Part shown: positions 33,005-60,590 of the stretch, piece by piece | Position numbering within the stretch: the first letter of the stretch is position 1 | Layout of the letters: every line of letters starts with the position of its first letter | Source of the DNA: Candidatus Spongiisociaceae bacterium | Lineage (GTDB): Bacteria; Actinomycetota; Acidimicrobiia; Spongiisociales; Spongiisociaceae | Assembly (NCBI GenBank): GCA_965202665.1 | Contig: OZ241841.1 | Span: 453,743 to 517,742, forward strand | Direction of reading: 5' to 3' | DNA length: 64,000 nucleotides | The notes under the pieces: model-generated | The model's database searches: none | Told to the model about the DNA's origin: nothing | The model's input: the letters and a program-made list of their open reading frames with translations, nothing else | Position numbers and translations under genes: made by a program

Positions 33005-33032
33005 ACGCTACCCCCCCCCCCCAATTTGTCAA
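33005..33032 (-). promoter_or_regulatory. Promoter-like element of paralog A: TTGACA-aatt-G12-TAGCGT (16-bp spacer)
   Basis: The + strand reads acgcta C12 aatt tgtcaa. It lies ~52 nt upstream of the start codon. The same element precedes all five paralogs with G-tract lengths of 11-13. Confidence 0.5.
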
Positions 33033-33074
33033 ATCAAACCTCGATGAAGGCGTCTTCTATGTTGCTTATGTTCC

Positions 33075-36000
33075 TCAGTTCCCGCCGGTGGCGGCGGGGG
33101 CGAGGTTGACGGCGCGGACGAAGAAAGAGGCCATCTGCGCTCTGGTTACCGGTTTGTTCGGGCAGTAGTTGAGGGGGGTGGTGGCGCAACCTCTGGTTAC
33201 GCCTCTGCCGTACATTCCTTCAATAGCCCGGATGATGGCGGGGTCTAGTCCTGTTGCGTCTTGGAAGAGGTTTTGGGGTTCTTCCACGGATTGGAGGTGG
33301 GGAAAGGCGGCGATCATCATGATGGCCATATCGGCCCGGGTTACCACACCGCCGGGGTTGAAGTTTCCGTCGGTGAGCGCGAAGGCGTTTACGGAGACGC
33401 CCCATTCGGCGTAGGTGCGGTACCAAGCATCGGCTGGAACATCGCTGATTTCTATGTCCTCGGGGGGTTGGATGGTCCAGCGTTGGGAGACGGCGCGGTG
33501 GAGGAAGGCGGCCATTTGCCTGCGGGTGATTTGGGCTCCGGGGCAGTATTTGGTGGAGTCTTCGGTGTCGCAGCCGAGGGTGATTCTCCATCCGGCTATC
33601 CGTTCGATGTTGGCTTCATGGACGCTGCCGTCGTCATCGCAGAACCGGCCCTGGCAGACCGGTTCGGGGGGAGGCGCAGGGGCCGGCGGGGGCGCGGCGG
33701 GCGGCGGGGTGCCGCCTCCTCCCCCTCCGCCTCCACCTCCCCCGCCGCCGCCTCCTCCTCCGCCGCCGCCTCCGCTACCCCCTCCGCCGCTGGGGCTGGG
33801 GGGCGGGGCGTCGTTGGCGGGGATGGCGAGGGTGAGGGTGGCGGGGCTGGGGGTTAAACCGGCTGGGGCGGTGGCGGTGAGAACGATTCGTTCAGCTCGT
33901 TCTGGGGTGTTGTCGTTGATGATGGTTATGGTCAGGTTGGGGGCCTGGGTTTGCCCGGCGGGAATGACCGCGGTCAGGTTGCTTATCCGATAGTCGGAGT
34001 TACGGATGGCGTCTCCGCCGAGGCTGAAGGTAACGGCGGTGTCGGTGGAAAGCGGGTTCGATCCGGCGGGGAAGCGGGTAGCGATAGCGGCGGTGGCGCC
34101 GGTAGTTTCAGCCACGCTGGTTCGGGAGAGGCTGATTTGGACGCTGGTGGGCGGAGCGTCGTTGTCTTTGATGGTGAGCGTAGCCGGTTCGACGGTGAAC
34201 CCGGCCAGCGTTCCGATTATCTGCAAGGTTTCGTCCCCTTCGGCGATGTTGTCGTCGGCCACGGCGGACAGGGTGATGGTTTGAGGGGTAGCGCTGTTTT
34301 GGTTAGCGGAGATGGTCATATCAGCAAGCGCGGAGGCGGTGAAGTCAGACGAAGAAGCGGTACCCCCGTAGGCCAGACTGACGGTCTGGGAAGCACCTAA
34401 AGTTTCCGTACCCGGATAGGCGGCCCGCAGGCTTAGAGTGATGTTGGCGTCCCCTTCGGTCACCTCGTCTGGCGTGACGGCAAGAATAACAGTCAGGTCA
34501 TCGTCGAGGATGGACAGCGTGTCCTCCCCGATAGTGAAACCGGCGAGGGTCCCCCCGGCGACGGTCAACGTTTCCGGCCCCTCAAAAGCCGCATCATTGT
34601 ATGTTCCATCAGTTCTAAGAACAAAACTGCTAACCCCGCTGGATTGGTAAGCGGGAATGGCAACAGTAAAGTCGCCTACCGTTTCGTAATCCGTTCCCTC
34701 AGTGGCCTCCCCGGAAGGCTTTCCGACCACAATCGGCACGAAAGTAGCGGCGGAACGGGTGGCGGTTCCTTGAAAAGCGGCCCGTACCCGCACGGTGGTG
34801 CTTGTTCCGCCTTCGGGTACTTGGGTCAGCTCCGCTCCTACCTCGCCGCCGTCATCTTCATAAAGAGAGACATCGATGACGGTAGGAGGAGAATCGTTGT
34901 CGTTTAGGGTCAAACTGGCATCTACCGTCTGGTAGGTGTCGGCGCTGATAGTTACATCACTGCCTTCGAAAAGAATGGTCTTCGCCGGTTCGGCAACGCT
35001 GTCGTCATTTACAACAATGGTGACATCAGCGAAACTGTTGGTGCTTCCTTGGGCGATGGTGATGCCGGTGGAGTATCCGCCGGGAGTTCCGGTCGGTTTG
35101 GAGGGCCAAGTCACACGGTAGTCCTCCCCATCCGCCCATACGTTGTTAGAGGCCGCAACGGCGGTACTGCCCTCGGCTATTCTCAGGCCTACTACCACTC
35201 CACCCGAGGGGACGGTGACCCCGGTGGGCAGGGTAGCGGTCACCCGTATAGTGGAGGATCCGCTGTTCTCATCCAACGCAGACACGGAACTCCCGGACTT
35301 AGCCAGAGTGAGGGTGATGGCGCTGTCTACTACGTTGATAGTGTCAGTATCTGACTCCGATTCTCCAGCGACGGTGGCGCTTCCGGTTATTTTCACCGTT
35401 TCAGTGGTGGCTTCCTGTGTTCCATCGTCCCGGGCGGTCAGCTTGAATGTTCCCGTATGGCTGACTTCCCCGGCGGGGATGGTAATGGTAAACGAGTTGC
35501 CCGTCTGATCGGTGCAAACATCGTTCTGACCGATCGCGGAGCACGACGCCGCCATCGTCGCCCCGTTGGAATCCCCGGCCGCTACCGCCACCGTCACATC
35601 GGTGCCCGCCGCTAAAGCGGAGGAGGACGCTCCCGCGAACCCGGCGGTTACCGTAACATCATGGGCGGCGCCGCTTTCATACACCGTTCCCGGCGACGCG
35701 GTGACTTCCAAAGCGGTGTCGCTAGCCCCGATAGTCAACGTGTCCGAAGTTACCGTCACGCCGCTTCTCCCAACAACAGTACCGGTGATGGCAAACGTTT
35801 CCGCCGCCTCGGTCTCCGCGTCGTCTGCAACCGACAAGCCCGACAAGTTCACCCAAGGGCTTGCCAGACTGCTTTGCCCGGCGGGGATGGACACCGTGAC
35901 CGGCGTAGCGGGAGCGGTGAAATCAACACCACCGCCCGCCGCTGACTGCGGCGACGAAACCCCGGCGGTGACGCGCACCTGCAGAGCGGATCCTAAATCG

Positions 36001-38636
36001 TTGGAAGTAGCAGATGTGAACCTGGCCTGTACCCGCACCGCCGCCGTTGCCCCCTCCGACAGGGTCTTCTGCTCCCCGACCATCACATCCGTATCCGCTT
36101 TTACAGTCACCCCCAAATCATCATCGGCGATAACCAACGATGTTCCGCTGACCGAAAACCCCGTCGCGCTGCCCCCAATGTCGATGCTCTCCGCTCCCTC
36201 CGCGATCGTATCCCCGTCAATTAGCAAACCGGTCAACGCCGTAGCCGAGCTGGAGATGGAACCAGCCGGGATGCTCAACGTCAACGCCGTGCCCGGAGCG
36301 GTGAAATCCGCCGCCTCCGCGTTCTCACCCTCGCTGAACGACAACGTAACAGACGTGGCCCCGGTCAGCTCCGAAGTAGACGCCCCCGCAAACGCGGCCA
36401 TCACCGACGCCGCACCCGCGTTTGTCGCTCCCTCGCCCACCGACGACGAGCTGAGCGTCAACTCTATCATTTCCGTGATTTTCAAATCCGCGGGAATAAC
36501 CGTAAACCCGGCAGCGGAACCGGCGAACCGAATCGTTTCCTCCCCCTCCGCCACCGTGTCCGACAGGGGAGTAATGGTCACATCCGCGGTTGCCGACGTA
36601 TCACCCGACGGGATCACCAAGTCCACCGTTTCCGCTCCCCGGTCGTAGTCGCCGCTCGAACAAGACCGGGACTGGCCGCTCCCCGAACACACCCCCACCG
36701 TCGCCGTCCCACCCATAGCACCCACGTCTACGACGACGGACGTCTGCGAAGTCACCGCGGTTTCGGCGGTGGCTTTCACCCGCACCCTCCGCGCCCCCCC
36801 ACCCTCCGCTACCCCCGCCAACGCCGCCTCCCCGCTCGCCGCCTCATGCAAAGACAAATCCACCCGCGTCCCCGCATCGATAATCGGCAAATCCACCGAC
36901 TCCACCACCACATCCGACCCGCCCACCGACGCCGTACCCGACACCACCATCTTCTCCCCCGACTCACCCGTACCATCATCAAGAACCGTCACCGTAAACG
37001 TTTCGCTCGCCGACGTCCCACCCGCCGGAATGGAAATCGTGGTCGCATTACCCGTCAAACTGGTACAAGCATCATCCCCGCCAGACACCGGACACGACGA
37101 CGACAAAGCCGCCCCGCCCTCCCCCGCCACCGTCACCGCCACATCAGTAGCAGCTGTCAGAATAGACGACGACCCCTTAAACCGAGCCGTCACCCTAACC
37201 TGCTGCGCCCCCGCCTGCTCCTCCACCGACGACGGAGACACCTCCAACTCAACATCAGCGTCATCATCATAAATAGTCAACACAGACGACCGAGCGTCCC
37301 CCAACGCCGACGACCCACCCACCAAAAAAGTCTCCGGCCCCTCCACCACCGCATCATCGGTGATCGTCAACCCCGCCAACGTCGCCGTACCCGACGCAGT
37401 CACACTCCTAGCCGGAAAAGAAATCGTATTCGCCGTCGACGGAGCATACGAAAAATCAGCCGCCGCCGCCTTCCCCGCCCCCGCCGGAGTCTGCGCCTCC
37501 GCCGACAACGTCACCACCGTCGCCGAAGAAATCACCGACGACGTCGCATTCCAAAAAGCAGCCGCCACCGACACCCCCGAACCAGACGCCCCCTCCTCCA
37601 ACACAGCCTGATTCCCATCTTCGCCACCATCGGTATCCACCGTAAAACCCACCCGATTCGCATCCTTGACAGTAAGCGGGGTTGGGAACGCCGTCCAACC
37701 CATCGGAACACCTTGATTTAGCCTAACGTAAAATATCTCATCCGGCTCCACCACCCTATCTCTCATAACCCTCAGACCTATATAAGAGATACCACCACCC
37801 ACACCACTGTGAGTAGACTGAGAAACAGTATTGGCGGGTATGGTCATCCGCTGAATCTCGTCCCAATTATGTAATTGGTAGACATCGGTGGGACTGCCTT
37901 TCGAATCTTTCTGTATAGCGGTCCCGCTATCGAAATACAATTGCATATCCGCCAAAGCTTGGCCGTATGTCGAAGAAGTAGACTGGGTGAACACACCATT
38001 CGTCACCCCACCCAATACAGCCGTCGGTGCAGGTTCATATATATGACCATCGGGTCTATTCATAGATTCACCCTCTTCCTTCTCCGGCAAAACCTCATAC
38101 GACATGTTCACCTTAATCGCCCGATCCTGATCGGTGATAGTCAAAGTAGTCCCAGTCACCGTATACCCAGACTTAGAAGCGGTACCGGAGAAGGTGATAG
38201 TCTCATGCTCCTCCGTAATCCTATCCGCCCGCGTAAAAAGTTGCCAAGGGATTATATTATAACCGATCGTCTGACCCACACCAATAGTAACATTAAAATT
38301 AGTAGATGAGTCAATACACGCATCACCACCTCGACACTCCATCCTAGTTTCCAGTAGGGTAACGGTCCTGTACACATTATTTACGGTAGCGGTCCCACCC
38401 CGAGTAACCGTCACCGTCACACTAGAAGTCACCGCCGAAGGCACCGACGCCCTCAAAAAAAGGTACTTACCCGAAGTAGCACTGTCCTCCCCCACCGAAG
38501 TGATCGCGGCTCTGGCGCTCGTCGCCTCCACCACGCTGAGCGTAATCGCCGTCTGCGCCCCCACCGCCGCCGGCGCAACCGGCAACACCGACCACACCAA
38601 CCCCGCCGCCAACGACAACACCGCCAACCGCCGCAT
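33075..38636 (-). CDS. Giant SLH-anchored cell-surface protein, paralog B (shorter; B/C-type SLH anchor)
   Basis: ORF 33075..38687. The start is the ATG at 38636 (MRRLAVLSLAAGLVWSVLPVAPAAVGAQTA). It has Calx-beta-like repeats, a (G)25 linker, and a C-terminal anchor HEANIERIAGWRITLGCDTEDSTKYCPGAQITRRQMAAFLHRAV... that is nearly identical to paralog C. Confidence 0.85.
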   Translation of the reverse strand: MRRLAVLSLAAGLVWSVLPVAPAAVGAQTAITLSVVEATSARAAITSVGEDSATSGKYLFLRASVPSAVTSSVTVTVTRGGTATVNNVYRTVTLLETRMECRGGDACIDSSTNFNVTIGVGQTIGYNIIPWQLFTRADRITEEHETITFSGTASKSGYTVTGTTLTITDQDRAIKVNMSYEVLPEKEEGESMNRPDGHIYEPAPTAVLGGVTNGVFTQSTSSTYGQALADMQLYFDSGTAIQKDSKGSPTDVYQLHNWDEIQRMTIPANTVSQSTHSGVGGGISYIGLRVMRDRVVEPDEIFYVRLNQGVPMGWTAFPTPLTVKDANRVGFTVDTDGGEDGNQAVLEEGASGSGVSVAAAFWNATSSVISSATVVTLSAEAQTPAGAGKAAAADFSYAPSTANTISFPARSVTASGTATLAGLTITDDAVVEGPETFLVGGSSALGDARSSVLTIYDDDADVELEVSPSSVEEQAGAQQVRVTARFKGSSSILTAATDVAVTVAGEGGAALSSSCPVSGGDDACTSLTGNATTISIPAGGTSASETFTVTVLDDGTGESGEKMVVSGTASVGGSDVVVESVDLPIIDAGTRVDLSLHEAASGEAALAGVAEGGGARRVRVKATAETAVTSQTSVVVDVGAMGGTATVGVCSGSGQSRSCSSGDYDRGAETVDLVIPSGDTSATADVTITPLSDTVAEGEETIRFAGSAAGFTVIPADLKITEMIELTLSSSSVGEGATNAGAASVMAAFAGASTSELTGATSVTLSFSEGENAEAADFTAPGTALTLSIPAGSISSSATALTGLLIDGDTIAEGAESIDIGGSATGFSVSGTSLVIADDDLGVTVKADTDVMVGEQKTLSEGATAAVRVQARFTSATSNDLGSALQVRVTAGVSSPQSAAGGGVDFTAPATPVTVSIPAGQSSLASPWVNLSGLSVADDAETEAAETFAITGTVVGRSGVTVTSDTLTIGASDTALEVTASPGTVYESGAAHDVTVTAGFAGASSSALAAGTDVTVAVAAGDSNGATMAASCSAIGQNDVCTDQTGNSFTITIPAGEVSHTGTFKLTARDDGTQEATTETVKITGSATVAGESESDTDTINVVDSAITLTLAKSGSSVSALDENSGSSTIRVTATLPTGVTVPSGGVVVGLRIAEGSTAVAASNNVWADGEDYRVTWPSKPTGTPGGYSTGITIAQGSTNSFADVTIVVNDDSVAEPAKTILFEGSDVTISADTYQTVDASLTLNDNDSPPTVIDVSLYEDDGGEVGAELTQVPEGGTSTTVRVRAAFQGTATRSAATFVPIVVGKPSGEATEGTDYETVGDFTVAIPAYQSSGVSSFVLRTDGTYNDAAFEGPETLTVAGGTLAGFTIGEDTLSILDDDLTVILAVTPDEVTEGDANITLSLRAAYPGTETLGASQTVSLAYGGTASSSDFTASALADMTISANQNSATPQTITLSAVADDNIAEGDETLQIIGTLAGFTVEPATLTIKDNDAPPTSVQISLSRTSVAETTGATAAIATRFPAGSNPLSTDTAVTFSLGGDAIRNSDYRISNLTAVIPAGQTQAPNLTITIINDNTPERAERIVLTATAPAGLTPSPATLTLAIPANDAPPPSPSGGGGSGGGGGGGGGGGGGGGGGGGGGTPPPAAPPPAPAPPPEPVCQGRFCDDDGSVHEANIERIAGWRITLGCDTEDSTKYCPGAQITRRQMAAFLHRAVSQRWTIQPPEDIEISDVPADAWYRTYAEWGVSVNAFALTDGNFNPGGVVTRADMAIMMIAAFPHLQSVEEPQNLFQDATGLDPAIIRAIEGMYGRGVTRGCATTPLNYCPNKPVTRAQMASFFVRAVNLAPAATGGN

Positions 38637-38687
38637 CACCCAACCTCCAATCCTCCACACGGCGCCGCGAACCGGCACCCTACGCAA

Positions 38688-38714
38688 ACGCTACCCCCCC
38701 CCCCAATATGTCAA
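38688..38714 (-). promoter_or_regulatory. Promoter-like element of paralog B: TTGACA-tatt-G11-TAGCGT (15-bp spacer)
   Basis: The + strand reads acgcta C11 aata tgtcaa. It is a variant with the duplicated -35 region TTGACTTGACA. Confidence 0.45.
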
Positions 38715-38855: not shown

Positions 38856-41800
38856 TTATGAGCCGGCGGCGGCGGGGGCGAGGTTGACGGCGCGGACGAA
38901 GAAGGAGGCCATCTGCGCTCTGGTTACGGGTTTGTTGGGGCAGTAGTTGAGGGGGGTGGTGGTGCAGCCTCTGGTTACGCTTCTGCCGTACATTCCTTCG
39001 ATGGCCCGTATTATCGTCGGGTCTAGTCCTGTTGCGTCTTGGAAGAGGTTTTGGGGTTCTTCTACGGGTTGGAGGTGGGGGAAGGCGGCGATCATCATGA
39101 TGGCCATGTCGGCTCGGGTTACTACTCCGCCGGGGTTGAAGTTTCCGTCGGTGAGTTCGAAGGCGTTTATGGAGACGCCCCATTCGGCGTAGGTGCGGTA
39201 CCAGGCGTCTTGGGATACGTCGTTGATTTCTATGTTTTGGGGGTTTTGGATGGTCCAGCGTTGGCTGACGGCGCGGTGGAGGAAGGCGGCCATTTGCCTG
39301 CGGGTGATTTGGGCTCCGGGGCAGTATTTGGTGGAGTCGGTGGCGTCGCAGCCGAGGGTGATTCTCCATCCGGCTATCCGTTCGATGTTGGCTTCATGGA
39401 CGCTGCCGTCGTCGTCGCAGAATCGTCCTTGGCATGCCGGTTCGGGGGGAGGCGCGGGGGCGGGTGGGGGCGCGGTCGGCGGGGCGGCCGGGGGCGGTGG
39501 GGCTGGGGCGCCGCCGCCTCCTCCTCCGCCGCCACCTCCTCCGCCGCCACCTCCCCCGCCGCCACCTCCGCCTCCGGCGGGCGGGTTTCCTCCGCTGGGA
39601 GCGGGGGGTGGGGCGGGGGGTGGGGCGTCGTTGTCGGTGATGGTGAGGGTGAGGGTGGAGGGGTTGGGGGTTAATCCGGCTGGGGTGGCGGCGGTGAGGA
39701 CGATTCGTTCGTTTGGTTCGTCGTCGGTGTCATGGAGGATGGTTATGGTGAGGTTGGGGGCTTGGGTTTGCCCGGCGGGGATGACCGCGGTCAGGCTGTT
39801 TATTCGGTAGTCGGAGTTGCGTTGGGCGTTTCCGCTGAGGGTGAAAGCGACGGCGGTGTCGGTGGGGAGCGTGTCGGACCCGGCGGGTAAGCGGGTGGCG
39901 ATGGTAGCGGTAGCGCCGGTAGTTTCAGCCAGGTTGTTGGCGGAGAGGCTGATTTGGATGCCGGCGGGCCGGTCGTCGTCGTCTTTGATAGTGAAGACGG
40001 CGGGGGTGACGGCGTATCCGGCGACCGTTCCGGTTATTTGCAAGGTTTCGTCTCCCTCGGCAATGCTGTCTTCGGTGGTTTGCAGGGCGAAGGTGGGGAG
40101 GGTGGCGCTGTTTTGGTTGGCGGGGATGGTCAGAGAGGTAAGAGAGGGGGCGGTGTAGTCAGCTCCGGCGACGGCGTCTCCTCCGAGGGCCAGGTTTACG
40201 GTTTGGGAAGTGGTGAGGGCCGCGCCCGGGTAGGCGGCTCGCAGGGTTGCGGCCGCGACCGCGTCGCCTTCGTTCACCTCGTCTGGGGTGAGGGTGAGGG
40301 TGATGGTTTCGTCGTCGATGATGGTGAGGGTGTCTTGCCCGATAGTGAAACCGGCGAGGGTTCCGCCGGCGACGGTCAACGTTTCGTTCCCTTCAAGGTT
40401 TTCGTCGTCATATGTTCCGTCGGTTTTGAGGGTGAAAGTGCCGGTTCCGCTGGTTTGGTAGGGGTCGATCACCAAGTTGAAGGCGCTTACCGTTTGATAA
40501 TCGGTTCCTGGTGTGGATTCCCCGGCGGCTTTACCGACCACAATCGGCACGGAAGTTGCGGCGGAGCGGGTGACGGTTCCCTGAAAAGAAGCCCGCACCC
40601 ACACTACATCTTCGCCGCCTTCAGGTACTTGGGTAAGCGCCGCCCCGATGTCGCCTTCGTCGTCGCGGTGGAGGGCGAGGTCGATGTTGGCGGGCGGGTC
40701 GTCGTTGTCGCTGATAGTAAGCGCGGCGGCTACCGCGTGGTAGACGACGCTGCTGATGGTTACCGTGCTGCCGTTGACGGTTATGGTTTTGTCCGGTTCG
40801 TCTACGCTGTCGTCGTTTACCGTGATGGTAATATCGGCGGCGCCGCTGGTTTGCCCCTGCGCGATGGTGACGCCGGTGGCGTATCCATCAGGAGTGGAGG
40901 CTGGTTTGGGGGGCAGGCTGATCCGGTAGTCTTCTTGTTCCGTCCAGACGTTGTCGGAGTCCGCAGTAGCGCTACCGGCTATGTTCAGGCCTACAACCAC
41001 CCCGCCGGAGGGGACGGTCGTACCGGTGGGGATGGTGGCGGTCACCCGTATGGTGGCAGACGCGCTGCTCTCGGACAACGTAGATATGGCGTTGTTGTTG
41101 GAGGCGTTGGTTAGGGAAAGGGTGATGCCGCTGTCTACAACGTTGATAGTGTCGGAATCCGATTCTGATTCTCCGGCGACGGTGGCCGAGCCGGTTATTT
41201 TCACCTTTTCCACGCTTTCCGGCGTGTTGTCGTCCCGGGCGGTCAGCTGGAACGTTCCCGTATGGCTGGTTTGCCCGGCGGGGATGGTGACGGTAAACGA
41301 GTTGCCCGTCTGATCGGTGCAAACATCGTTCTGTCCGATCGCGGAGCACGACGCCGCTACCGTCGCTGGGTCGGTGTCCCCGGCCGCTACCGCTACCGTC
41401 ACCGCGGTGCCCGCCGACAAAGCCGATGAGGTCGCTCCGGCGAACCCGGCGGTCACCCTTATCGTATGAGCAGAACCGCTTTCATGCACCGTCCCCGGCG
41501 ACGCGGCAACCTCCAAAGCGGTGTCGCTGGCCCCGATAGTCAACGTATCCGAAGTTATCGTCACGTCGCTTCTCCCGGAAACGGTACCGGTGATGGCAAA
41601 GGTCTCCGCCGGTTCAGTCACAGTGTCGTCCGTAACCGCAAGTCCTGTCAGGTTCGCCCATGCGCTTTCCAGGCTGCTTGTACCGGTGGGAATGGACACC
41701 GTAACCGGCGTAGCGGGAGCGGTGAAATCTGTTCCCCCGCCCACCGCCGACTCCGGCGACGAAACCCCGGCGGCGACGCGCACCTGCAGAGCGGAACCTA

Positions 41801-45926: not shown

Positions 45927-45982
45927 CACCCAACCTCCATCTTCGCTTCCGGTCCAACCCGTAAACGGGACCGATGCGAAAA

Positions 45983-52000: not shown

Positions 52001-53241
52001 GACCCATTACCGCTCTTCACCGCGCCAGCGGGAATAGAAAACGTGCTCGCAGACGACGAAACATAATTGACATCCGCGTCCCCCGCCTCCCCCGCCGCCG
52101 GCGAAGCCTTCTCATCCACCGACAAAACAGCCGTCGTCGCCGACGCATGAGTCGACGACCCAACCCCATCCGGCCACCCCGCCCACGCCACCACCCCCGA
52201 ACCCGACGCCCCCTCCGCCAACACAGACTGATTCCCCTCAGTTTCACTATCGGTGTCCACCCTGAACACCACCTGCGAATCCACCAAATCCCTAATAATC
52301 ACCGGGCCTCTCTCCACCGTAAACCCCGCGACAGAGCCATAAACCCCTAACCGTATGTGCACCCGGTCCGCATCTGCGGTATTATTCGCATGCAAACCGT
52401 AATAATAATTACTGGTGGTAGAGGTTAACCTACCACCCGAAAAGTTTAAAAACCTCTTTTCTGATGGGTGCCATTTATTTCTTGAATTTATGCCTGAAGA
52501 GATAGTGCCAAGCTGTATAAAGTGATTCCACACCTGTACTGAGTTTGCCGGATCGAGTGATTTGTTCTGAGTTTGTATTGTTCCTGTGTATGTAGAAGAT
52601 GTAGAAGAAGTGAACCGGCCACCCGACAAACCTCCCAAAGTACCAGTAGCATTAACATAAATTCTATTTTGATACGTAGCCGCCTCGTATACCACAATCG
52701 GGCTGATTTTGATAGTCCGATCCTGATCCGTAATAGTCAAATCAGTCGGAGAGACCGTATACCCAGCAACGGTGGTAGTACCGGTCAACCGGATTGTCTC
52801 ATGATCCTCTGTAATCCTATCCGACCGCAGAAAGAGTGTAGCGTCAAAAGGATAAGTATAGCTAGTAGCACCCGCCCTAATAGTTATACTAGGAGGCGCG
52901 CCCCTAATACAGTAATCACCAGCAGAGCAAACCCACCTCGAAGGACGACCCTGTCTTCGCTCCTCGTAAGATGTCGCATCACGCGCTACTCCTTGAGTGG
53001 CGGTACCACTTATCAAAGAATTGACATTCACCCGCAAATCGGAGGACGGCGCCGAGGGCACCGACGCCTTCAACCGCAAAGCCTTCGTACCGCTGTCCTC
53101 CCCCACCGAGGTCACCGGGTTGCCCGCAGGATCAACCCAACTGAGCGTAATCGCCGTCTGCGCCCCCACCACCGCAGGCGCGGCCGGCAACACCGACAGG
53201 ACCAAACCCGCCGCCAACGCCAACAGCCCCAGCCGCCGCAT
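46093..53241 (-). CDS. Giant SLH-anchored cell-surface protein, paralog D
   Basis: 2382 aa, starting MRRLGLLALAAGLVLSVLPAAPAVVGAQTA. It is nearly identical to paralog E over most of its length. It has a (G)18 linker and an A/D/E-type SLH anchor. Confidence 0.85.
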   Translation of the reverse strand: MRRLGLLALAAGLVLSVLPAAPAVVGAQTAITLSWVDPAGNPVTSVGEDSGTKALRLKASVPSAPSSDLRVNVNSLISGTATQGVARDATSYEERRQGRPSRWVCSAGDYCIRGAPPSITIRAGATSYTYPFDATLFLRSDRITEDHETIRLTGTTTVAGYTVSPTDLTITDQDRTIKISPIVVYEAATYQNRIYVNATGTLGGLSGGRFTSSTSSTYTGTIQTQNKSLDPANSVQVWNHFIQLGTISSGINSRNKWHPSEKRFLNFSGGRLTSTTSNYYYGLHANNTADADRVHIRLGVYGSVAGFTVERGPVIIRDLVDSQVVFRVDTDSETEGNQSVLAEGASGSGVVAWAGWPDGVGSSTHASATTAVLSVDEKASPAAGEAGDADVNYVSSSASTFSIPAGAVKSGNGSLAGLSVVDDAVVEGPETLTFGGGTSSLGSEYTIAESELTIYDDDADIELGWSLSSVEEQAAARQVTVTARFKGSSSILTTATAVAVSVAGAGGASLSSACPVAGGNDACTSLTGNATTISIPAGGTSASATFSVTVPDDGAGESGEKLRVSGSASVGGSAVVVESADLPIIDAGTKVNLSFHEAAAGEAVLAGIAEDGGAQTVRVKATAGAAVTSDTTISVNVGSAGGTATLGTCTGSGPGRSCTSGDFDPGSGTVDVTIASGESSGTADATITGLSDTVVEGAETIRFTGSAAGFTIFPADLKITETIELTLSQSSIGESATNAGAATVTAAFAGASSSTLTGATAVTLSFGAGEEAETLDFTAPGAALTLSIPAGSTSSSAAALTGLLITGDTIAEGEEKIDVGGTADGFGVSGTELTITDDDLGVTLTADTDSATGEQQTLPEGETAAVRVRAAFTTATTNDLSAAYQIQVTAGEGSPVSATGGGVDFTAPGAAATVTIPTGTALQSGWVNLTGLSVADDTIAEGAETFLITGTATGGATVASEKVTIVDDDVDVTLSASPTGVVEQAAAHQITVTARFQGATSVLSAATPVTVTVGAGDTNGATVDSAVCSITPTAADVCTNQTNNQFTVSIPAGDLNASGSFQLQARNDMDNNEDIENLKLTGTTTIGSVTPAQLEVYDPTRALTLSFHEPSSDAPALSGITENGGAQTVRVKATLGKAAASNTTVTVNVGAAGGTATLGATGDYTRGAATAPITINSGDTSGTADVVLTPRDDGTMEGAETIRFTASATGYLPAVAVADLPILETIVLALSQSTVDERDANAGAVTVTASFAGVSSSSLTQATDVTLSFGAGENAEAADFTAPGTAVTVTIPASATTSSAVALSGLLITGDTIAEDAETINIDGTAGGFAVSGTTLVITDDDLDVTLTADTDGVESGNQKTLSEGETVAVRVRAAFATATSNDLGSALQVRVTAEALSPASAEAGGIDFTPPATPVTVSIPAGQTQSAWTNLTGLLVTDDAVTELAETFRIAGTSGNSGVGITPDTLTIGASDTALEVTASPGRVTESTDAHNVTVTAGFAGATSSALATNTDVTVTVAAGDSNGATVATACSPLMTEDVCTDQTGNSFTIRIPAGQHHHAGSFQLTARVDTDAETTAETVKISGSATVAGTSTSDAATINIADSGIRLALTNPSNSSAVSALAENSGTTTVRVTATLPVNAPTGGVVVGLEIDEDSTATADSNRVWTNREDYRVAWPSKPSGTPSGYAAGITIAAGTKTGYVDIDITVNDDNVDEPARRIIIDGSHVTINNVDYHTVAAALTINDNDGPPTAIILSLHSTRADSSGEHLTEAHENEETRVRVVATFQGTATRSAATFVPIVVGKTAAGEATEGTDYETVDAFNVEIPGYQNSGTDTFLLKTDGTYNDNNFEGPETLTVAGGTLAGFTIAQDTLTLIDDDLTVTLTLTPNQGTEGDTNTSVTLQAAYPTGETLPNPHTINLAFGGTAVAADYTAPALTPLTILANQNSATRTLSLPITDDSIDEPDETVQITGTSAGITIEPAAFTIKDNDDPPTGITLTVNPASLPEGQTNRQITITARLDGTTTRSEATSVAITIPGPDSTATPNDDYQITNQPTTITIRPATQTGSATFNITIPNTDGPEPNETLQITGTAADFTITPAVLTIRNSAPPPPPPPPPTSTPSAPTGSGGGGGGGGGGGGGGGGGAPPPAAPPPAAGGGGAPPPAGGGAPPPAGPAPPVAPPPAPVVCQGRFCDDDGSVHEPNIALMAEWGITIGCDANDPTKYCPSAQITRRQMATFIYRAVNPRWPIQIPTGITINDVPADASYRPYANWLVSIGAFQLNDGNFNPRGIVTRADMAVMMVAAFPHIQAVSESQNLFADTANLDAAVVRAIEGIAESEVTRGCTTTPPLRYCPNNPVTRAQMASFFVRVINQAPTTTGES

Positions 53242-53298
53242 TCTCCAACCTCCATACTCGCTTCCGGCCAGCCCGTAAAACAGGACCGATTACGGGAA

Positions 53299-53325
53299 AC
53301 GCTACCCCCCCCCCCAATTTGTCAA
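53299..53325 (-). promoter_or_regulatory. Promoter-like element of paralog D: TTGACA-aatt-G11-TAGCGT (15-bp spacer)
   Basis: The + strand reads acgcta C11 aatt tgtcaa. Confidence 0.5.
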
Positions 53326-53364
53326 ATCAACCCCCGATGAGGGCGTCGACGTTGCCTAGCTGGC

Positions 53365-56300
53365 TCAACCCGATTCTTCGGTGGTGGTGGGGGCTTGGTT
53401 GATTACTCTTACGAAGAAGGACGCCATCTGGGCGCGGGTTACCGGATTGTTGGGGCAGTATCTGAGAGGCGGCGTGGTGGTGCATCCTCTGGTCACTTCG
53501 CTTTCGGCTATGCCTTCTATGGCCCTTACCACGGCCGCGTCCAGGTTGGCGGTGTCGGCGAACAGGTTTTGGGATTCGGATACGGCTTGGATGTGGGGGA
53601 AAGCAGCTACCATCATGACCGCCATGTCGGCTCGGGTTACTATGCCCCTGGGGTTGAAGTTCCCGTCGTCTAGTTGGAAGGCCCCGATGGATACTAGCCA
53701 GTTGGCGTAGGGGCGGTAGCTGGCGTCGGCGGGGACGTCGTTGATTGTTACGCCGGTGGGGATTTGGATGGGCCAGCGGGGGTTGACGGCGCGGTAGATG
53801 AAGGTGGCCATTTGCCTGCGGGTGATTTGGGCGCTGGGGCAGTATTTGGTGGGGTCGTTGGCGTCGCATCCGATGGTTATTCCCCATTCGGCCATTAGCG
53901 CGATGTTGGGTTCGTGGACGCTGCCGTCGTCGTCGCAGAACCGACCCTGACAGGCCACCGGCGCGGGAGGCGGCGGTGCGGGCGCGGCGGGCCCAGCCGG
54001 GGGTGGGGCCCCTCCTCCTGCGGCGGGAGGCGGGGCTCCGCCTCCTCCTCCTCCGGCGGCGGGGGGCGGCGCGGCCGGCGGCGGCGCGCCTCCACCGCCT
54101 CCTCCGCCGCCGGTGGGTGGGTTGGGGGTGGTGGTTGGTGGCGGCGGGGGCGGGGGCGGGGGTGCGCTGTTGCGGATGGTGAGAACGGCGGGGGTGATGG
54201 TGAACCCGGCGAGGGTTCCGTTTATTTGGAGGGTTTCGTTTGGTTCGGGGCCGTCGGTGTTGGGGATGGTTATGTTGAAAGTTGCGGTTCCGGTTTGCGT
54301 TGCGGGGCGGATGGTTATGGTGGTGGGCTGGTTGGTGATTTGGTAGTCGGCGGGGGTGGTGGTGCTGTCGGGGCCGGGGATGGTTATAGCCACGGAGGTG
54401 GTTTCAGATCGGGTGGTGGAGCCGTCCAGCCGGGCGGTGATGGTGATCTGACGGTTGTTTGCTCCTTCGTCTAAGCCGGATGGGCTGGTGGTGAGGGTGA
54501 TGCCGGTGGGTGGGTCGTCGTTGTCTTTGATAGTGAAGGTGGCGGGGGTGATAGTGATTCCGGCGGAGGTTCCAGTTATCTGTACGGTTTCATCCGGTTC
54601 ATCGATGCTGTCATCGGTGATAGGCAAGCTGAGGGTTCGGGTAACGCTGTTTTGATTAGCGAGGATGGTTAGGGGGGTGAGGGCGGGGGCGGTGTAGTCG
54701 GCTCCGGCGGTGGCGGTTCCTCCGAGGGCCAGGGTTATGGTGTGGGGGTTGGGGAGGGTCTCCCCGGTCGGGTAGGCGGCTTGTAGGGTTACGGACGTGT
54801 TGGTGTCTCCTTCGGTCCCTTGGTTCGGGGTGAGGGTGAGTGTAACGGTCAGGTCGTCGTCGATGAGGGTGAGGGTATCTTGCGCGATCGTGAATCCGGC
54901 GAGCGTTCCACCGGCGACGGTTAGCGTTTCCGGGCCCTCAAAGTTGTTGTCGTTGTATGTTCCGTCGGTTTTGAGCAGGAAAGTATCGGTGCCGCTGTTT
55001 TGGTAGCCGGGGATTTCCACATTGAAGTCGGCTACCGTTTGGTAGTCGGTTCCTTCGGTGGCTTCCCCGGTTTTGCCAACCACGATGGGGACGAAGGTGG
55101 CGGCGGAGCGGGTGGCTGTTCCCTGGAAGGTAGCTACCACCCGCACCCGGGTTTCTTCGTTTTCATGGGCTTCGGTGAGGTGTTCCCCACTACTGTCGGC
55201 CCGGGTGCTGTGCAAGGTGAGAGTGACAGCAGTGGGAGGGCCGTCGTTGTCGTTGATGGTGAGAGCGGCGGCTACCGTGTGATAATCCACATTGTTGATT
55301 GTTACATGACTGCCGTCGATGATTATCCTTCTTGTCGGTTCGTCGACGTTGTCATCGTTTACCGTAATATCTATATCCACGTAGCCGGTTTTGGTACCGG
55401 CGGCGATGGTGATACCGGTGTTGTAGCCGGAGGGGGTTCCGCTCGGTTTAGAGGGCCAGGCCACTCGGTAGTCTTCCCGGTTGGTCCAAACCCGGTTGGA
55501 GTCCGCGGTGGCGGTGCTGTCCTCGTCGATCTCCAAACCCACCACCACACCGCCGGTAGGGGCGTTCACCGGCAGGGTAGCGGTAACCCGCACAGTGGTT
55601 GTTCCGCTGTTTTCCGCCAACGCGGACACCGCGCTGTTGCTGGAGGGGTTGGTCAGGACAAGCCGGATGCCGCTGTCCGCGATGTTGATAGTCGTAGAAT
55701 CGGAGGCGGCTGTTCCGGCGACGGTGGCCGAACCGCTGATTTTCACCGTTTCCGCAGTAGTTTCCGCATCAGTATCAACCCGGGCGGTCAGCTGAAACGA
55801 CCCCGTATGATGATGCTGACCAGCCGGAATGCGGATAGTGAACGAGTTGCCCGTCTGGTCGGTGCACACATCTTCAGTCATCGACGGAGAGCATGCCGTC
55901 GCCACCGTCGCTCCGTTGGAATCCCCGGCCGCTACCGTAACCGTCACGTCGGTGTTGGTTGCCAGCGCGGAGGAGGTCGCTCCGGCGAACCCGGCGGTGA
56001 CCGTTATGTTGTGGGCGTCGGTGCTTTCCGTCACCCTCCCCGGCGACGCGGTTACCTCCAAAGCGGTGTCGCTGGCCCCGATAGTCAACGTATCCGGGGT
56101 AATCCCCACGCCGCTGTTCACCGACGTCCCCGCGATTCTGAACGTTTCCGCCAACTCCGTCACCGCATCATCCGTAACCAACAGGCCCGTCAAGTTCGTC
56201 CAGGCGCTTTGGGTTTGCCCGGCGGGGATGGACACCGTGACCGGGGTGGCGGGAGGGGTGAAATCTATTCCCCCCGCCTCAGCCGACGCCGGCGACAAAG

Positions 56301-59300
56301 CCTCCGCGGTCACGCGTACTTGCAGAGCGGATCCTATATCGTTGCTGGTAGCAGTCGTGAACGCGGCTCGTACCCGCACCGCAACCGTCTCTCCCTCCGA
56401 CAAAGTTTTCTGATTCCCGCTTTCCACGCCGTCAGTATCCGCCGTCAGGGTCACTTCTAGATCATCGTCTGTGATAACCAGCGTCGTTCCGCTAACCGCA
56501 AACCCCCCAGCGGTACCGTCGATGTCAATACTCTCCGCGTCCTCCGCGATGGTGTCCCCCGTAATCAGCAAACCGCTCAACGCAACGGCGGAGCTGGTGG
56601 TGGCGGAGGCTGGGATGGTCACCGTGATCGCGGTGCCCGGGGCGGTGAAATCCGCCGCCTCCGCGTTCTCACCCGCCCCGAACGACAAGGTTACGTCGGT
56701 GGCCTGGGCGAGCGAGGAACTGGACGCCCCCGCAAAAGAGGCGGTAACAGTCACGGCTCCGGCGTTGGCGTCTCTTTCATCCACCGTGGACTGACTGAGG
56801 GCCAAAGTGATCGTCTCCAGGATCGACAAATCAGCGACCGCGGGCAGATACCCGCCGGTAGCGGAAGCGGTGAAACGAATAGTTTCCGCCCCCTCAATCG
56901 TCCCATCATCGCGGGGAGTGAGTACGACATCCGCCGTCCCACTGGTTTGGCCGCTAGCGATGGTGATAGTCGCCGTGCTACTCCCGCGGGTGTAATCCCC
57001 AGTCGCTCCCAAAGCGGCGGTTCCGCCCGCAGCCCCTACATTTACAGTCACCGTGGCTGACGACGAAGCGGCTGCGCCGAGGGTGGCTTTCACCCGCACC
57101 GTCTGCGCCCCCCCATCCTCGGTAATCCCCGACAAGGCCGGAGCGGCGCTGGTCGGCTCATGGAAAGACAAAGTAACCGCCCGACCCGGATCGAAAACAC
57201 CCATCTGAGCGGACGCCACCTGACCTATAGAAGTAGAACCAGTCAGTTTCAAATACTCGATACCCTCAGTGTCATCCCCATCGGCGCGGGCCCGCAGCTG
57301 AAAAGAACCCGAACCGCTGACATCCCCGGCGGGGATGCTGACCGTGAACTGATTGTTCGTCTGGTTAGTGCACACATCCGCTGTCATCGTCATCGTAGAA
57401 CATACCGCGGTATGCACCGTCGCGCCGCTGGTGTCCGCCGACCCAACCGTTACCGTCACCGGAGTAGCCGCCGACAACACCGAAGTAGCCCCCTGAAAAC
57501 GGGCCGTTACCACTATCTGATGATCCGCCGTCCGTTCCACCACCTCCGCCGGCGACGCCGACAAAGACACATCCACATCATCATCAACGATAGTTATCGT
57601 CTCCGCAACCACCGTCCCGCCTGTCGCGGTACCGGTGATGAGAAAAGTCTCCGCTCCCTCCGCTACCGTGTCATCCGCCACCGACAGGCCGGTGAGATTC
57701 ACCCAGCCGCTTTGCAGGGCGGTTCCGACGGGCATAGTCACCGTCGCAGTCGTGCCGGGGGCGGTGAAATCAACACCCCCGCTGGTCGCCGACACCGGAG
57801 AACCCTCCTCCGCGGTCACCTGAACCGTATACGCGGCGGTCAAGTCGTTGGTAGTAGCTGATGTGAACCGGGCCCGTACCCGTACCGCCGCCGCCTCACC
57901 CTCCGGCAGGGTTTGCTGCTCCCCGTTCGTGCCGCTATCGGTGTCCGCCGTTAACGTAACCCCCAGATCATCGTCGTTTATGGTCAGCTCCGTTCCGCTC
58001 ACCACAAACCCATCCGCCGTCCCCTCAACATCGATTTTCTCCTCCCCCTCCGCGATCGAATCAGACGTAATCAGCAAACCGGTCAGAGCGGTAGCGGAAC
58101 TGGAGGTGGAAGAAGCCGGAATACTCACCGTGATCGCGGTGCCGGGAGCGGTGAAATCCAACGTCTCCGCGTTCTCGCCCGCCCCGAACGACAACGTAAC
58201 AACCGTCGCCCCCGTCAACATCGAAGTAGCAGCCCCCGCGAACGCGGCCGTCACCGTGGCCGCCCCCGCGTTCGTCGCGCTCTCGCCTATTGACGGCTGG
58301 CTGAGGGTCAACGTAATCTCTTCGGTGATTTTCAAATCCGCGGGGAACACGGCAAACCCGGCGGCGGAACCGGTGAACTGAACCGTTTCCTCCCCCTCCG
58401 CCACCGTATCCGACAAAGGAGTAATAGTCACATCCGCCGTCCCGGAAGTCTCACCCGACGCAATCGTCACATCCACCGTCGCCGCCCCCCGATCGTAGTC
58501 GCCGCTTGCGCAAGACCGGGACTGTCCGCTACCCGTGCATGTCCCCAAAGTCGCCGTACCCCCCGCCGCCCCCACATTCACGCTAATCGTCGTATCCGAG
58601 GTCACCGCCGCTCCCGCCGTAGCCTTCACCCGCACCGTCTCCGCCCCCCCACCCTCCGCTATCCCCGCCAGCGCCGCCTCGCCCGCCGTCGCTTCATGCA
58701 ACGACAGATCCACCCGCGTCCCCACATCCACAATCGGCAAATCCACCGACTCCACCGTCACCGCCGTCCCGCCCACCGACGCCGAACCCGACAGCGTCAG
58801 CTTCTCCCCCGACTCGCTCGTACTATCATCAGGAACCGTCACCATAAACGTGCCGGTCCCCGACGTCGCACCCGCCGGAATAGACACCGTCATCTGATTA
58901 TTAGTCAAACTAGTACAAGCATCGTTCGTATTCGCCGGACACCCCAAAGAAGCCCCACCCGACCCCGCCACCGACACCGTCACATTTGTAGCAGTCGTCA
59001 GAATCGACGACGAACCCTTAAACCGGGCGGTCACCGTAACCTGCTGCGACCCCGCCTGCTCATCCACCGACGACGGAGACACCTCCAACTCAATATCAGC
59101 ATCGTTGTCATATATCGTCAACGTGTCCGCCGTAGCGGTTCCCAAAGCCGACGACCCACCCACCTCAAAAGTTTCCGGTCCCTCCACAATCGTATCATCG
59201 GTGATCGTCAAACCAGCCAACGTAGCCGAACCCGAAGCAGTGATACTCCGAGCCGGGAAAGAAATCGTATTCGCCATCGACGGAGCATACGAAAAATCAG

Positions 59301-60504
59301 CCGCAGTCGCCTTCCCCGCCCCCGCCGGAGTCTCCGCCGCCGCCGACAACGTCACCGTCGTCACCGAAGAAATTTGCGACGACGTCGCGTTCGGAAAACT
59401 AGCCGACACCGACACCCCCGAACCGGAATCCCCCTCCGTCAACACATCCTGATCCCCTATAGCCTCACTATCGGTATCCACCGTCAAACCCACCTGACTA
59501 TTAGCATCCTTAATCGTAACCGGAGCCCTTAACACCGTCCAACCTGACGGGACGGATTGCAACCCAACATAAAAAACCTCATCCGACTCCGCCGCCTCAT
59601 CCCTCATAACTAGTGAAAAGAAAAAAACAAGAGGGCTATCTACGCCGTGAAAACTCCCAGAAACCTGACCGGCGGTTATCCTCGCACCAATAGGATCATC
59701 ATTGTTACTATTATGGGATGAAACGACATCCGCAGGAAAATCATCATTTGAATTGACCGACTGCAGATGGGTAGCGGTTCCCGCCTCTGTCACTATTCGC
59801 ATAAGCCTCGTATCTCCCCTCTGTTGGTACGCTAAATCTTGGCCGTACGTTGAAGAAGTAGAAGCAGTGAACACACCACCCTTCACCCCACCCACCACAA
59901 CCGATGGCCCAGGTCTATGTAGAAAACCATGAGCACGGTTATCACCGGCTGGCGTAACCTGATCCTCCCGCAACACATCCCGCGATAAGTTCACCTTAAT
60001 CACCCGGTCCTGATCGGTAATCCTCAAAGTAGCCGGAGTTACCGTATACCCAGAAGCGGAACCGGAAAAAATGATGGTCTCATGCTCCTCCGTAATCCTA
60101 TCCGACCGCAGTTCAATCGTAAAATTAGTAGACGTAACACTTGTTTGATTCCTATGAATAGTTAAATTCCAAGGCTCATTAGCACAGTAATCACCAGAAT
60201 TGCAAACAAGCCTCGGAGGACGGTGCCGATCATACGCATTCAAATTTACACGCACTCCTTCAGTGGCAGTACCGGATAACGCCCTGATGCTAATCCGCAA
60301 ATTGGAGGACGGCGCCGAAGCCACCGACGCCCTCAACCGCACAACCTTCGAACCGCTATCCTCCCCCAGCGTGGTCACCGCGTTACCCGAAGGATCAACC
60401 ACACTGAACGTAATCGCCGTCGCCGCCCCCACCACCGCAGGCACGGCCGGCAACACCGACAGGACCAAACCCGTCGCCAACGCCAACAGCCCCAGCCGTC
60501 GCAT
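53365..60504 (-). CDS. Giant SLH-anchored cell-surface protein, paralog E
   Basis: ORF 53365..60507. The start is the ATG at 60504 (MRRLGLLALATGLVLSVLPAVPAVVGAATA). It has Calx-beta-like repeats, a short Gly linker and three SLH domains. Confidence 0.85.
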   Translation of the reverse strand: MRRLGLLALATGLVLSVLPAVPAVVGAATAITFSVVDPSGNAVTTLGEDSGSKVVRLRASVASAPSSNLRISIRALSGTATEGVRVNLNAYDRHRPPRLVCNSGDYCANEPWNLTIHRNQTSVTSTNFTIELRSDRITEEHETIIFSGSASGYTVTPATLRITDQDRVIKVNLSRDVLREDQVTPAGDNRAHGFLHRPGPSVVVGGVKGGVFTASTSSTYGQDLAYQQRGDTRLMRIVTEAGTATHLQSVNSNDDFPADVVSSHNSNNDDPIGARITAGQVSGSFHGVDSPLVFFFSLVMRDEAAESDEVFYVGLQSVPSGWTVLRAPVTIKDANSQVGLTVDTDSEAIGDQDVLTEGDSGSGVSVSASFPNATSSQISSVTTVTLSAAAETPAGAGKATAADFSYAPSMANTISFPARSITASGSATLAGLTITDDTIVEGPETFEVGGSSALGTATADTLTIYDNDADIELEVSPSSVDEQAGSQQVTVTARFKGSSSILTTATNVTVSVAGSGGASLGCPANTNDACTSLTNNQMTVSIPAGATSGTGTFMVTVPDDSTSESGEKLTLSGSASVGGTAVTVESVDLPIVDVGTRVDLSLHEATAGEAALAGIAEGGGAETVRVKATAGAAVTSDTTISVNVGAAGGTATLGTCTGSGQSRSCASGDYDRGAATVDVTIASGETSGTADVTITPLSDTVAEGEETVQFTGSAAGFAVFPADLKITEEITLTLSQPSIGESATNAGAATVTAAFAGAATSMLTGATVVTLSFGAGENAETLDFTAPGTAITVSIPASSTSSSATALTGLLITSDSIAEGEEKIDVEGTADGFVVSGTELTINDDDLGVTLTADTDSGTNGEQQTLPEGEAAAVRVRARFTSATTNDLTAAYTVQVTAEEGSPVSATSGGVDFTAPGTTATVTMPVGTALQSGWVNLTGLSVADDTVAEGAETFLITGTATGGTVVAETITIVDDDVDVSLSASPAEVVERTADHQIVVTARFQGATSVLSAATPVTVTVGSADTSGATVHTAVCSTMTMTADVCTNQTNNQFTVSIPAGDVSGSGSFQLRARADGDDTEGIEYLKLTGSTSIGQVASAQMGVFDPGRAVTLSFHEPTSAAPALSGITEDGGAQTVRVKATLGAAASSSATVTVNVGAAGGTAALGATGDYTRGSSTATITIASGQTSGTADVVLTPRDDGTIEGAETIRFTASATGGYLPAVADLSILETITLALSQSTVDERDANAGAVTVTASFAGASSSSLAQATDVTLSFGAGENAEAADFTAPGTAITVTIPASATTSSAVALSGLLITGDTIAEDAESIDIDGTAGGFAVSGTTLVITDDDLEVTLTADTDGVESGNQKTLSEGETVAVRVRAAFTTATSNDIGSALQVRVTAEALSPASAEAGGIDFTPPATPVTVSIPAGQTQSAWTNLTGLLVTDDAVTELAETFRIAGTSVNSGVGITPDTLTIGASDTALEVTASPGRVTESTDAHNITVTAGFAGATSSALATNTDVTVTVAAGDSNGATVATACSPSMTEDVCTDQTGNSFTIRIPAGQHHHTGSFQLTARVDTDAETTAETVKISGSATVAGTAASDSTTINIADSGIRLVLTNPSSNSAVSALAENSGTTTVRVTATLPVNAPTGGVVVGLEIDEDSTATADSNRVWTNREDYRVAWPSKPSGTPSGYNTGITIAAGTKTGYVDIDITVNDDNVDEPTRRIIIDGSHVTINNVDYHTVAAALTINDNDGPPTAVTLTLHSTRADSSGEHLTEAHENEETRVRVVATFQGTATRSAATFVPIVVGKTGEATEGTDYQTVADFNVEIPGYQNSGTDTFLLKTDGTYNDNNFEGPETLTVAGGTLAGFTIAQDTLTLIDDDLTVTLTLTPNQGTEGDTNTSVTLQAAYPTGETLPNPHTITLALGGTATAGADYTAPALTPLTILANQNSVTRTLSLPITDDSIDEPDETVQITGTSAGITITPATFTIKDNDDPPTGITLTTSPSGLDEGANNRQITITARLDGSTTRSETTSVAITIPGPDSTTTPADYQITNQPTTITIRPATQTGTATFNITIPNTDGPEPNETLQINGTLAGFTITPAVLTIRNSAPPPPPPPPPTTTPNPPTGGGGGGGGAPPPAAPPPAAGGGGGGAPPPAAGGGAPPPAGPAAPAPPPPAPVACQGRFCDDDGSVHEPNIALMAEWGITIGCDANDPTKYCPSAQITRRQMATFIYRAVNPRWPIQIPTGVTINDVPADASYRPYANWLVSIGAFQLDDGNFNPRGIVTRADMAVMMVAAFPHIQAVSESQNLFADTANLDAAVVRAIEGIAESEVTRGCTTTPPLRYCPNNPVTRAQMASFFVRVINQAPTTTEESG

Positions 60505-60561
60505 CACCCAACCTCCATCCTTCGCTTCCGGCCCAACCCGTATCAGGACCGACTACGAGAA

Positions 60562-60590
60562 ACGCTACCCCCCCCCCCCAATTTGTCAAA
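60562..60590 (-). promoter_or_regulatory. Promoter-like element of paralog E: TTGACA-aatt-G13-TAGCGT (17-bp spacer)
   Basis: The + strand reads acgcta C13 aatt tgtcaa. Confidence 0.5.

Follow-up and report, generated by a model that had tools for sequence, protein, structure and literature searches.

The 64,000-nt stretch of DNA analyzed here (the window) corresponds to positions 453,743-517,742, forward strand, of contig OZ241841.1 in assembly GCA_965202665.1, which derives from a Candidatus Spongiisociaceae bacterium. It carries five giant genes, A to E, arranged in tandem on the minus strand, each preceded by a promoter-like element in which a pure run of G residues lies between a -35-like and a -10-like hexamer. 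The encoded proteins (1853-2391 residues) are 50-83% identical to one another and share an architecture consisting of a signal-peptide-like N-terminus, Calx-beta-like repeats, a long Gly/Pro linker and a C-terminal SLH region. The N-termini begin with the signal-peptide-like sequence MRRLGLLALAAGLVLSVLP, and the N-terminal sequence MRRLGLLALAAGLVLSVLPAAPAVVGAQ was judged by eye to resemble a signal peptide. The C-terminal regions of A, B and C match PF00395 (SLH) with 29-30.8 bits (cut-off 20.8), and D and E carry the C-terminal sequence common to these SLH-matching paralogs. The genes are as follows.

25778-32953, minus strand: gene A, 2391 residues; Pfam SLH 30 bits, Calx-beta 26.5 bits (just below the cut-off); leader 32954-33004
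33075-38636, minus strand: gene B, 1853 residues, a shorter paralog; Pfam SLH 30.8 bits, Calx-beta 28.2 bits; leader 38637-38687
38856-45926, minus strand: gene C, 2356 residues; Pfam Calx-beta 29.4 bits, SLH 29 bits; leader 45927-45982
46093-53241, minus strand: gene D, 2382 residues, architecture as in E; leader 53242-53298
53365-60504, minus strand: gene E, 2379 residues; leader 60505-60561, with a GGAGG ribosome-binding site

The element, TTGACA-(A/T)ATT-Gn-TAGCGT, was found at five minus-strand sites, one for each SLH/Calx-beta gene, and nowhere else in the window.

33005-33032, minus strand: promoter-like core A, TTGACA-AATT-G12-TAGCGT; tract 33011-33022; 16-bp spacer
38688-38714, minus strand: promoter-like core B, TTGACA-TATT-G11-TAGCGT; tract 38694-38704; 15-bp spacer
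45983-46010, minus strand: promoter-like core C, TTGACA-AATT-G12-TAGCGT; tract 45989-46000; 16-bp spacer
53299-53325, minus strand: promoter-like core D, TTGACA-AATT-G11-TAGCGT; tract 53305-53315; 15-bp spacer
60562-60589, minus strand: promoter-like core E, TTGACA-AATT-G12-TAGCGT; tract 60568-60579; 16-bp spacer

A preliminary description of this locus had placed the element ahead of all five giant SLH genes, and this was borne out, with TAGCGT ending 51-57 nt before the ATG (51, 51, 56, 57 and 57 nt for A, B, C, D and E, respectively). GGAGG precedes the ATG of each gene; four of the genes (A, B, C and E) carry GGAGGTTGGGTGATG, with GGAGGTTGGAGAATG replacing it in D. The same description had given tract lengths of 12, 11, 13, 11 and 13 and spacers of 16, 15, 17, 15 and 17 bp. 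These values were reproduced for A, B and D, but on recount both C and E contain 12 G residues and have 16-bp spacers. Its proposal that only the 17-bp versions match the sigma70 optimum had to be abandoned, because no 17-bp spacer exists and the proposed ON state is thus absent from the data.

Occurrence of the element is far beyond chance. The pattern TTGACA-N13-20-TAGCGT gave 5 matches in the window, as compared with 0.00 expected from 100 dinucleotide-preserving shuffles. In addition, the counts of G or C runs in the window fall geometrically with length (301 of 5 nt, 65 of 6 nt, 18 of 7 nt and 1 of 8 nt) and reach zero at 9-10 nt; the only longer runs, two of 11 nt and three of 12 nt, are those of the element. 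A homopolymer of at least about 8 nt between recognizable -35 and -10 hexamers is present ahead of 5/5 genes, although the -10 hexamer fits only the form TAnnnT. Two matches to TTGACG-N16-TAGCGT were set aside as chance occurrences, being antisense within giant genes and having no open reading frame (ORF) downstream. An attempt to derive a native spacer preference from counts of TTGACN-Nx-TAnnnT in 255 kb was dropped, as there were too few sites.

The rarity of long G runs elsewhere extends to the coding sequence of the giant genes. In the poly-Gly linkers of A-E, GGG accounts for 7 of 113 codons, whereas it accounts for 426 of the 1183 Gly codons overall (36%; P ~1e-13). The poly-Gly stretches reach 22 residues (e.g. 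within A residues 2123-2165), yet two GGG codons never occur in a row, and the near-absence of GGG from the linkers thus leaves the coding DNA without a long G run. This codon usage and the lack of 9-10 nt runs in the window indicate that G runs are counter-selected outside the element.

The distribution of the element was assessed in genome and metagenome collections. A scan covering one genome per species, with a pattern that tolerated interrupted tracts, found the exact architecture in one genome only, OZ251578.1, at 20 places; this is a 3.18-Mb metagenome-assembled genome of Candidatus Spongiisociaceae (Actinomycetota, Acidimicrobiia). A further match from the scan, L010, has no G run and was rejected as chance. 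A search by N-terminal homology returned 7 proteins, and two sponge metagenome contigs reached via protein homologs each yielded a further copy (L070, G12; L071, G11). Genes on both of these contigs are split, but the splits do not fall at homopolymers, look like assembly or chimera effects and were not considered further. Look-up of exact proteins led to independent contigs only from B and GAPDH; the same look-up with A, C, D, E and the long APH ORF gave no record. The exact element pattern had no copy in the JGI metagenome collection, and a search of IMG/VR gave no match. The 27 distinct copies considered below therefore comprise 5 from the window, 20 loci of OZ251578.1 and one each from L070 and L071.

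The relation of one promoter-like element to one paralog holds throughout (5/5 in the window, 20 in OZ251578.1 and 2 in L070/L071). Each of the 20 copies in OZ251578.1 is followed 49-105 nt downstream by a ribosome-binding site and gene start. The genes encode homologous giant secreted proteins, with the exception of those downstream of L004 and L020, where a different protein with N-terminal SLH domains is found. The downstream proteins share an MRR...signal peptide and a TITLS N-terminus. With 20 genes of ~5.5 kb, the family occupies about 3-4% of the 3.2-Mb genome of OZ251578.1.

Across the 27 copies, the 16 non-G positions differ at a single place, where B has T instead of A. TTGACA, ATT and TAGCGT reach an information content of 2.0 bits; directly outside A(T/C)TTGACAAATT...TAGCGTTT this falls to background, and there is no conservation upstream of TTGACA. 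Such a block is the footprint expected of a -35 hexamer, spacer and -10 hexamer. Window proteins are about 35-37% identical to the OZ251578.1 homolog P0004. Given that the proteins are as little as ~36% identical between genomes, the core must have been kept by purifying selection and not by gene conversion only. A more distant homolog on contig L072 (ERZ25070167 ctg394334) is preceded by TTGATT-AATC-G11-TAGTAT (9031-9041), in which the spacer is again 15 bp and the substitutions in the hexamers spare the consensus-critical TTG and TA...T. Within the window, a terminator-like GC hairpin of gene D (46016-46035, minus strand), followed by TTAATTT, ends 5 nt before the TTGACA of core C, an arrangement which argues for a transcription start of C's own and for separate transcription units.

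At L005 of OZ251578.1 (5111-5137), an intact G11 element precedes a 42-codon ORF that fuses the family signal peptide directly to the family's C-terminal tail (…FFVRAVNYTPPTDN) and appears to be what recombination or deletion has left of a giant gene. L011 carries a truncated family member of 395 residues. At L017, a second pure G11 tract (4708-4718, minus strand) lies ~130 nt upstream of the L017 promoter-like element in the context TTGATATC-G11-ACGCGA.

Tract length is the sole variable feature in these copies, which are otherwise invariant bar the one substitution. The tract is G11 in 13 copies, G12 in 13 and G19 in one, and is uninterrupted in all 27; the resulting spacer is 15 or 16 bp in 26/27 copies and 23 bp in the other, and never 17 bp. 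Paralogs that are 91-95% identical over the 600 nt downstream nevertheless have unequal tract lengths, and length concordance between nearest neighbors (15/27, as compared with 12/27 expected at random) carries no phylogenetic signal. The G19 tract occurs at L016 (4761-4795 of the OZ251578.1 locus), the closest paralog of which, L018 (91% identical downstream), has G12. Expansion by 7 should disable a promoter that depends on spacing; the reading frame of the L016 gene extends over at least 1044 codons.

Differences in length were also observed between close relatives at the same locus. Contig L069 is 99.976% identical to the window, with 4 differences in 16.9 kb. Two of these are tract lengths, the B tract being G12 (G11 in the window) and the A tract G11 (G12 in the window). 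The third is a non-homopolymer insertion of A, 10 nt after the TAGCGT of B (window 38684; L069 5931), about where transcription of B would be expected to start, and the fourth is a single-nucleotide polymorphism at about window position 40871. In contigs L073 and L074, from strains that are 97.5% identical, poly-G tracts precede the ATG of SLH/Calx-beta homologs at a distance of ~63 nt, and one orthologous pair has G9 in L073 (9620-9628) and G8 in L074 (9619-9626). The first gene of this pair of contigs is interrupted in both strains: an in-frame stop follows ~104 codons of open frame.

A homopolymer within a coding region was observed in the more distant homolog. The L072 gene contains a G12 tract (9230-9241) in the segment that separates the signal peptide from the mature protein, and as assembled, at 406x coverage, is out of frame there; G11 would bring back the frame. 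A second frameshift near 11290-11310 does not lie in a long run, and the gene may therefore simply be decaying.

The interpretation favored here, to which we assign a probability of about 55%, is that the element serves as a promoter of the sigma-70 type, in which a hypermutable tract in the spacer switches expression gene by gene. It is supported by the edges of the conserved block, the lability of tract length, the differences in L069 and the avoidance of G runs elsewhere. Each giant gene would have its own promoter for the housekeeping sigma factor (sigma-70/HrdB-type), with a perfect -35 hexamer, TTGACA, an actinobacterial-style -10 hexamer of the form TAnnnT, TAGCGT, and a spacer made up of AATT and a pure G11 or G12. 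A homopolymer of this length would undergo slippage as the DNA is replicated, and repair of 1-2 bp loops is not known from Actinobacteria; NucS repair leaves indels of 1-2 bp, and slippage is for this reason plausible in Actinobacteria. Promoters would then alternate between spacers of 15 and 16 bp and occasionally make a larger jump, as to G19. As a result, promoter strength would change separately for each paralog, such that cells would differ in the subsets or levels of giant surface proteins that they produce. To the observed anatomy of the element, its conservation across the family and between genomes, the purity of its tracts, their restriction to 11 or 12 and the lability of their length, this reading adds that the element is probably an active promoter, that changes in length, by analogy with characterized systems, would alter transcription, and that switching would be frequent and reversible; the missing phylogenetic signal in tract length and the purity of the tracts give indirect support to the last of these. 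By analogy with porA of Neisseria meningitidis, we infer that transcription would be stronger with G12 (16 bp) and weak or off with G11 (15 bp). The prediction of stochastic switching of each paralog made in the preliminary description is consistent with the comparative sequence evidence, whereas the specific model in which a 17-bp spacer is ON is contradicted.

Several observations weigh against spacer-dependent switching, and the alternatives to it are best considered alongside them. TAGCGT shares 3/6 positions with TATAAT, and an E. coli-style promoter scan made no call at the five sites; the match of 3/6 and the two 15-bp spacers account for this, and the missed call is attributed to the limited applicability of that consensus to Actinobacteria and is not read as a refutation. 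In L073 and L074, the poly-G tracts lie at the same distance from the ATG as the element but no hexamers are recognizable, such that conservation may concern the G run as such and not the spacing.

One such role would have transcription begin upstream, with the tract acting at the level of RNA or DNA: it could form a G-quadruplex, cause pausing or termination, or serve as a recombination signal in the array of paralogs. G11 would be just sufficient for a two-tetrad quadruplex, the L073 and L074 tracts without promoter hexamers would be accommodated, and the 42-residue deletion remnant at L005 points to recombination among paralogs. However, conservation stops at -35/-10-like hexamers in the right order and orientation, with nothing conserved upstream of TTGACA, and terminator-like hairpins lie directly upstream. 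A search of the window against Rfam gave no family match, and the predicted folding of the leaders is no more stable than that of shuffled sequences (z -1.0 to +0.9), on which grounds a riboswitch or structured leader was rejected. Taken together, a role of this kind for the G run seems very improbable.

The lengths themselves present a further difficulty. G13 and G10 are both absent from the 27 copies, and were +1 and -1 OFF states equally likely, the finding of G11 in 13/13 cases would have P ~1e-4. A simple random walk in which the optimum is ON and anything else is OFF does not fit these lengths. Moreover, the E tract is G12 in 4/4 assemblies (the window, L065, L066 and L067; 99.45-99.97% identity), and a G20 tract is present both in L073 (12433-12452) and in L074 (12434-12453), which are 2.5% apart. 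The constancy of E and the shared G20 suggest that length is either held by selection or slow to change. In well-studied contingency loci, such as those of Campylobacter with G9/G10, lengths are likewise confined to two adjacent values. Confinement of this type fits contingency loci, but it fits equally a promoter or regulator site of fixed geometry, in which the 1-nt difference would be neutral, length would be under selection and regulation would be conventional.

Under this alternative, the run could provide a rigid A-like spacer, contacts for sigma, RbpA or CarD, or a site for a dedicated regulator of SLH genes. It draws on the occurrence of 11 or 12 G residues in 26/27 copies across genomes with proteins ~36% identical, on the constancy of E and of G20, and on the complete absence of G13 and G10. 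The presence of the promoter-like element before another type of SLH protein (L004/L020) is regulon-like, and poly-G is kept upstream of homologs without hexamers. On the other hand, the wobble between 11 and 12 still changes spacer length, and a change in spacer length alters activity in every sigma-70-type promoter studied. An interruption would stabilize the run, yet 27/27 tracts are pure; a G19 copy exists; and no candidate regulator was identified. On balance, we regard fixed geometry, with any of these candidates for its basis, as unlikely but as deserving of serious consideration.

The length differences could also be technical, with one true length throughout and the 11/12 variation and the A and B switches arising from homopolymer miscalls. 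L069 is labeled as having 3x coverage and is apparently a long-read contig, and the window and OZ251578.1 are evidently long-read assemblies, with five 7-kb paralogs resolved. PacBio circular consensus sequencing (CCS) miscalls long homopolymers and gives a large proportion of wrong alleles, such that a +/-1 difference at a long tract in a HiFi contig of low coverage may have a technical origin; the four concordant calls at E are statistically compatible with noisy calling. Against this, G12 in L070 and G11 in L071 come from what are taken, from the style of the record names, to be short-read assemblies, and G12 at E is found also in L065 and in the Logan contig L067. L069 differs from the window by a non-homopolymer insertion and a single-nucleotide polymorphism as well, and is thus a genuine variant haplotype. 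The 7-kb ORFs hold many G/C runs of 6-7 nt with no frameshift, and the 406x contig L072 shows both G11 and G12 tracts. Miscalling as the source of all length differences is accordingly rather improbable, and it would remove the evidence for variation but not the element or its expected mutability.

A more ambitious version of the switching interpretation is put forward tentatively, at somewhat less than even odds. It holds that a deliberately maintained two-state switch, G11/G12, acts on every member of a family of at least 20 genes for giant SLH-anchored Calx-beta proteins and would generate combinatorial surfaces, with the two lengths held across genera and with operating spacers of 15/16 bp as opposed to the canonical 17. 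If so, it would be the first contingency-locus system to be described from members of the Actinomycetota that live as non-pathogenic symbionts of animals.

Mechanisms of this type are already known. The vlp genes of Mycoplasma hyorhinis have a poly-A tract in the promoter spacer, with a 17-bp spacer in the ON state, and switch independently and combinatorially. In fim2 and fim3 of Bordetella pertussis, a poly-C tract lies between the activator site and the -10 hexamer, and the activator BvgA is required. The present family resembles both in being a multigene surface family with a highly conserved promoter region and one homopolymer per member, and differs from them in base, tract length, organisms and protein types.

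A poly-G tract in the -35/-10 spacer, the length of which alters transcription, has been described for N. meningitidis porA and Treponema pallidum tp0126 (PMC7864442). As in those genes, a G homopolymer fills most of the spacer of a surface-protein gene. By contrast, porA and tp0126 have an active state with a 17-bp spacer and exist in several lengths in pathogens, whereas the copies described here have 15/16-bp spacers only, never 17 bp, and belong to an uncultured actinobacterial sponge symbiont. Poly-G promoter tracts have also been reported for T. pallidum tprE, G, J, F, I and L, with 7-11 G residues within strains by fragment analysis and with reporter activity that differs between 8 and 10 G residues (PMC7864442). 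The parallel lies in several surface-protein paralogs, each with a poly-G promoter tract of its own. In the tpr genes, however, the tract lies upstream of or over the -10 hexamer and the mechanism is not one of spacing, whereas here it fills the spacer, is longer (11-12) and precedes at least 20 genes per genome that encode SLH-anchored giants.

Among high-GC Actinobacteria, G or C runs that change in length are known from Cutibacterium acnes, where C5 or C7 in the promoter spacer at HPT_37 alters expression, and from Mycobacterium tuberculosis, where a change in the length of an intragenic 7C tract in glpK does so. Those tracts are of 5-7 nt, at single loci, and vary mostly between strains, unlike the present tracts of 11-12 nt, which are conserved across a paralogous family. 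The preliminary description had called such a mechanism unexpected in a high-GC organism, which in view of these C. acnes promoter tracts and mycobacterial glpK was an overstatement. Novel are the lineage, the scale of the family (at least 20 giant SLH genes) and the conserved restriction to two tract lengths, which gives spacers of 15/16 bp.

Acidimicrobiia that live in association with sponges are enriched in Calx-beta and further adhesion-type proteins (PMC11706023). No mechanism of variation has been reported for these proteins, and our literature search on sponge-associated Acidimicrobiia found no paper on this element or on any phase variation. The context is the question of how symbionts persist in a sponge that phagocytoses bacteria, amid abundant phages. 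If the switching interpretation is correct, it would provide stochastic diversification of the surface against host recognition or phage adsorption and would extend contingency loci from pathogens to mutualistic Actinomycetota. Strict lengths of 11/12 and spacers of 15/16 bp would in addition inform promoter geometry in this unstudied lineage.

Matches to the looser pattern TTGACAWATT-G9+ in metagenomes came only from unrelated organisms, mostly of low GC content, and were not taken as copies of the element. Low-GC contigs (27-34%) L023, L025, L031, L042, L044, L046, L053 and L056, from unrelated organisms, have the same -35 hexamer and AATT in the form TTGACAAATT-G9-11-(1-2 nt)-TATACT/TATAAT. 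Contigs L022, L026, L028 and similar (41-45% GC) likewise carry TTGACAAATT-poly-G promoters, and in a set of contigs of ~43% GC, one locus has G9, G10, G11 or G12 across samples. Given that unrelated metagenome contigs carry it, the same promoter design recurs outside the lineage.

The neighbors of the array in the window include a DUF222+HNH gene, phosphoglucomutase, APH and two GAPDH genes. The DUF222+HNH combination is found mainly in actinobacterial genomes. The two GAPDH genes are adjacent, in tandem and overlapping (62401-63420 and 63417-64000, minus strand), an arrangement also present in L065-L067. At 3158-12360 (minus strand), three tandem paralogs (longest ORFs 792, 900 and 1202 residues) match PADLOC HmaB of the Hma defense system; the HmaB DNA-adenine methylase model is matched over nearly its full length (E 1e-264 to 0), and DUF1156 is found in two of the three. 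The GC content of this region (53-58%) is below that of its surroundings, and the triple HmaB array could be a variable-specificity or a decaying defense locus.

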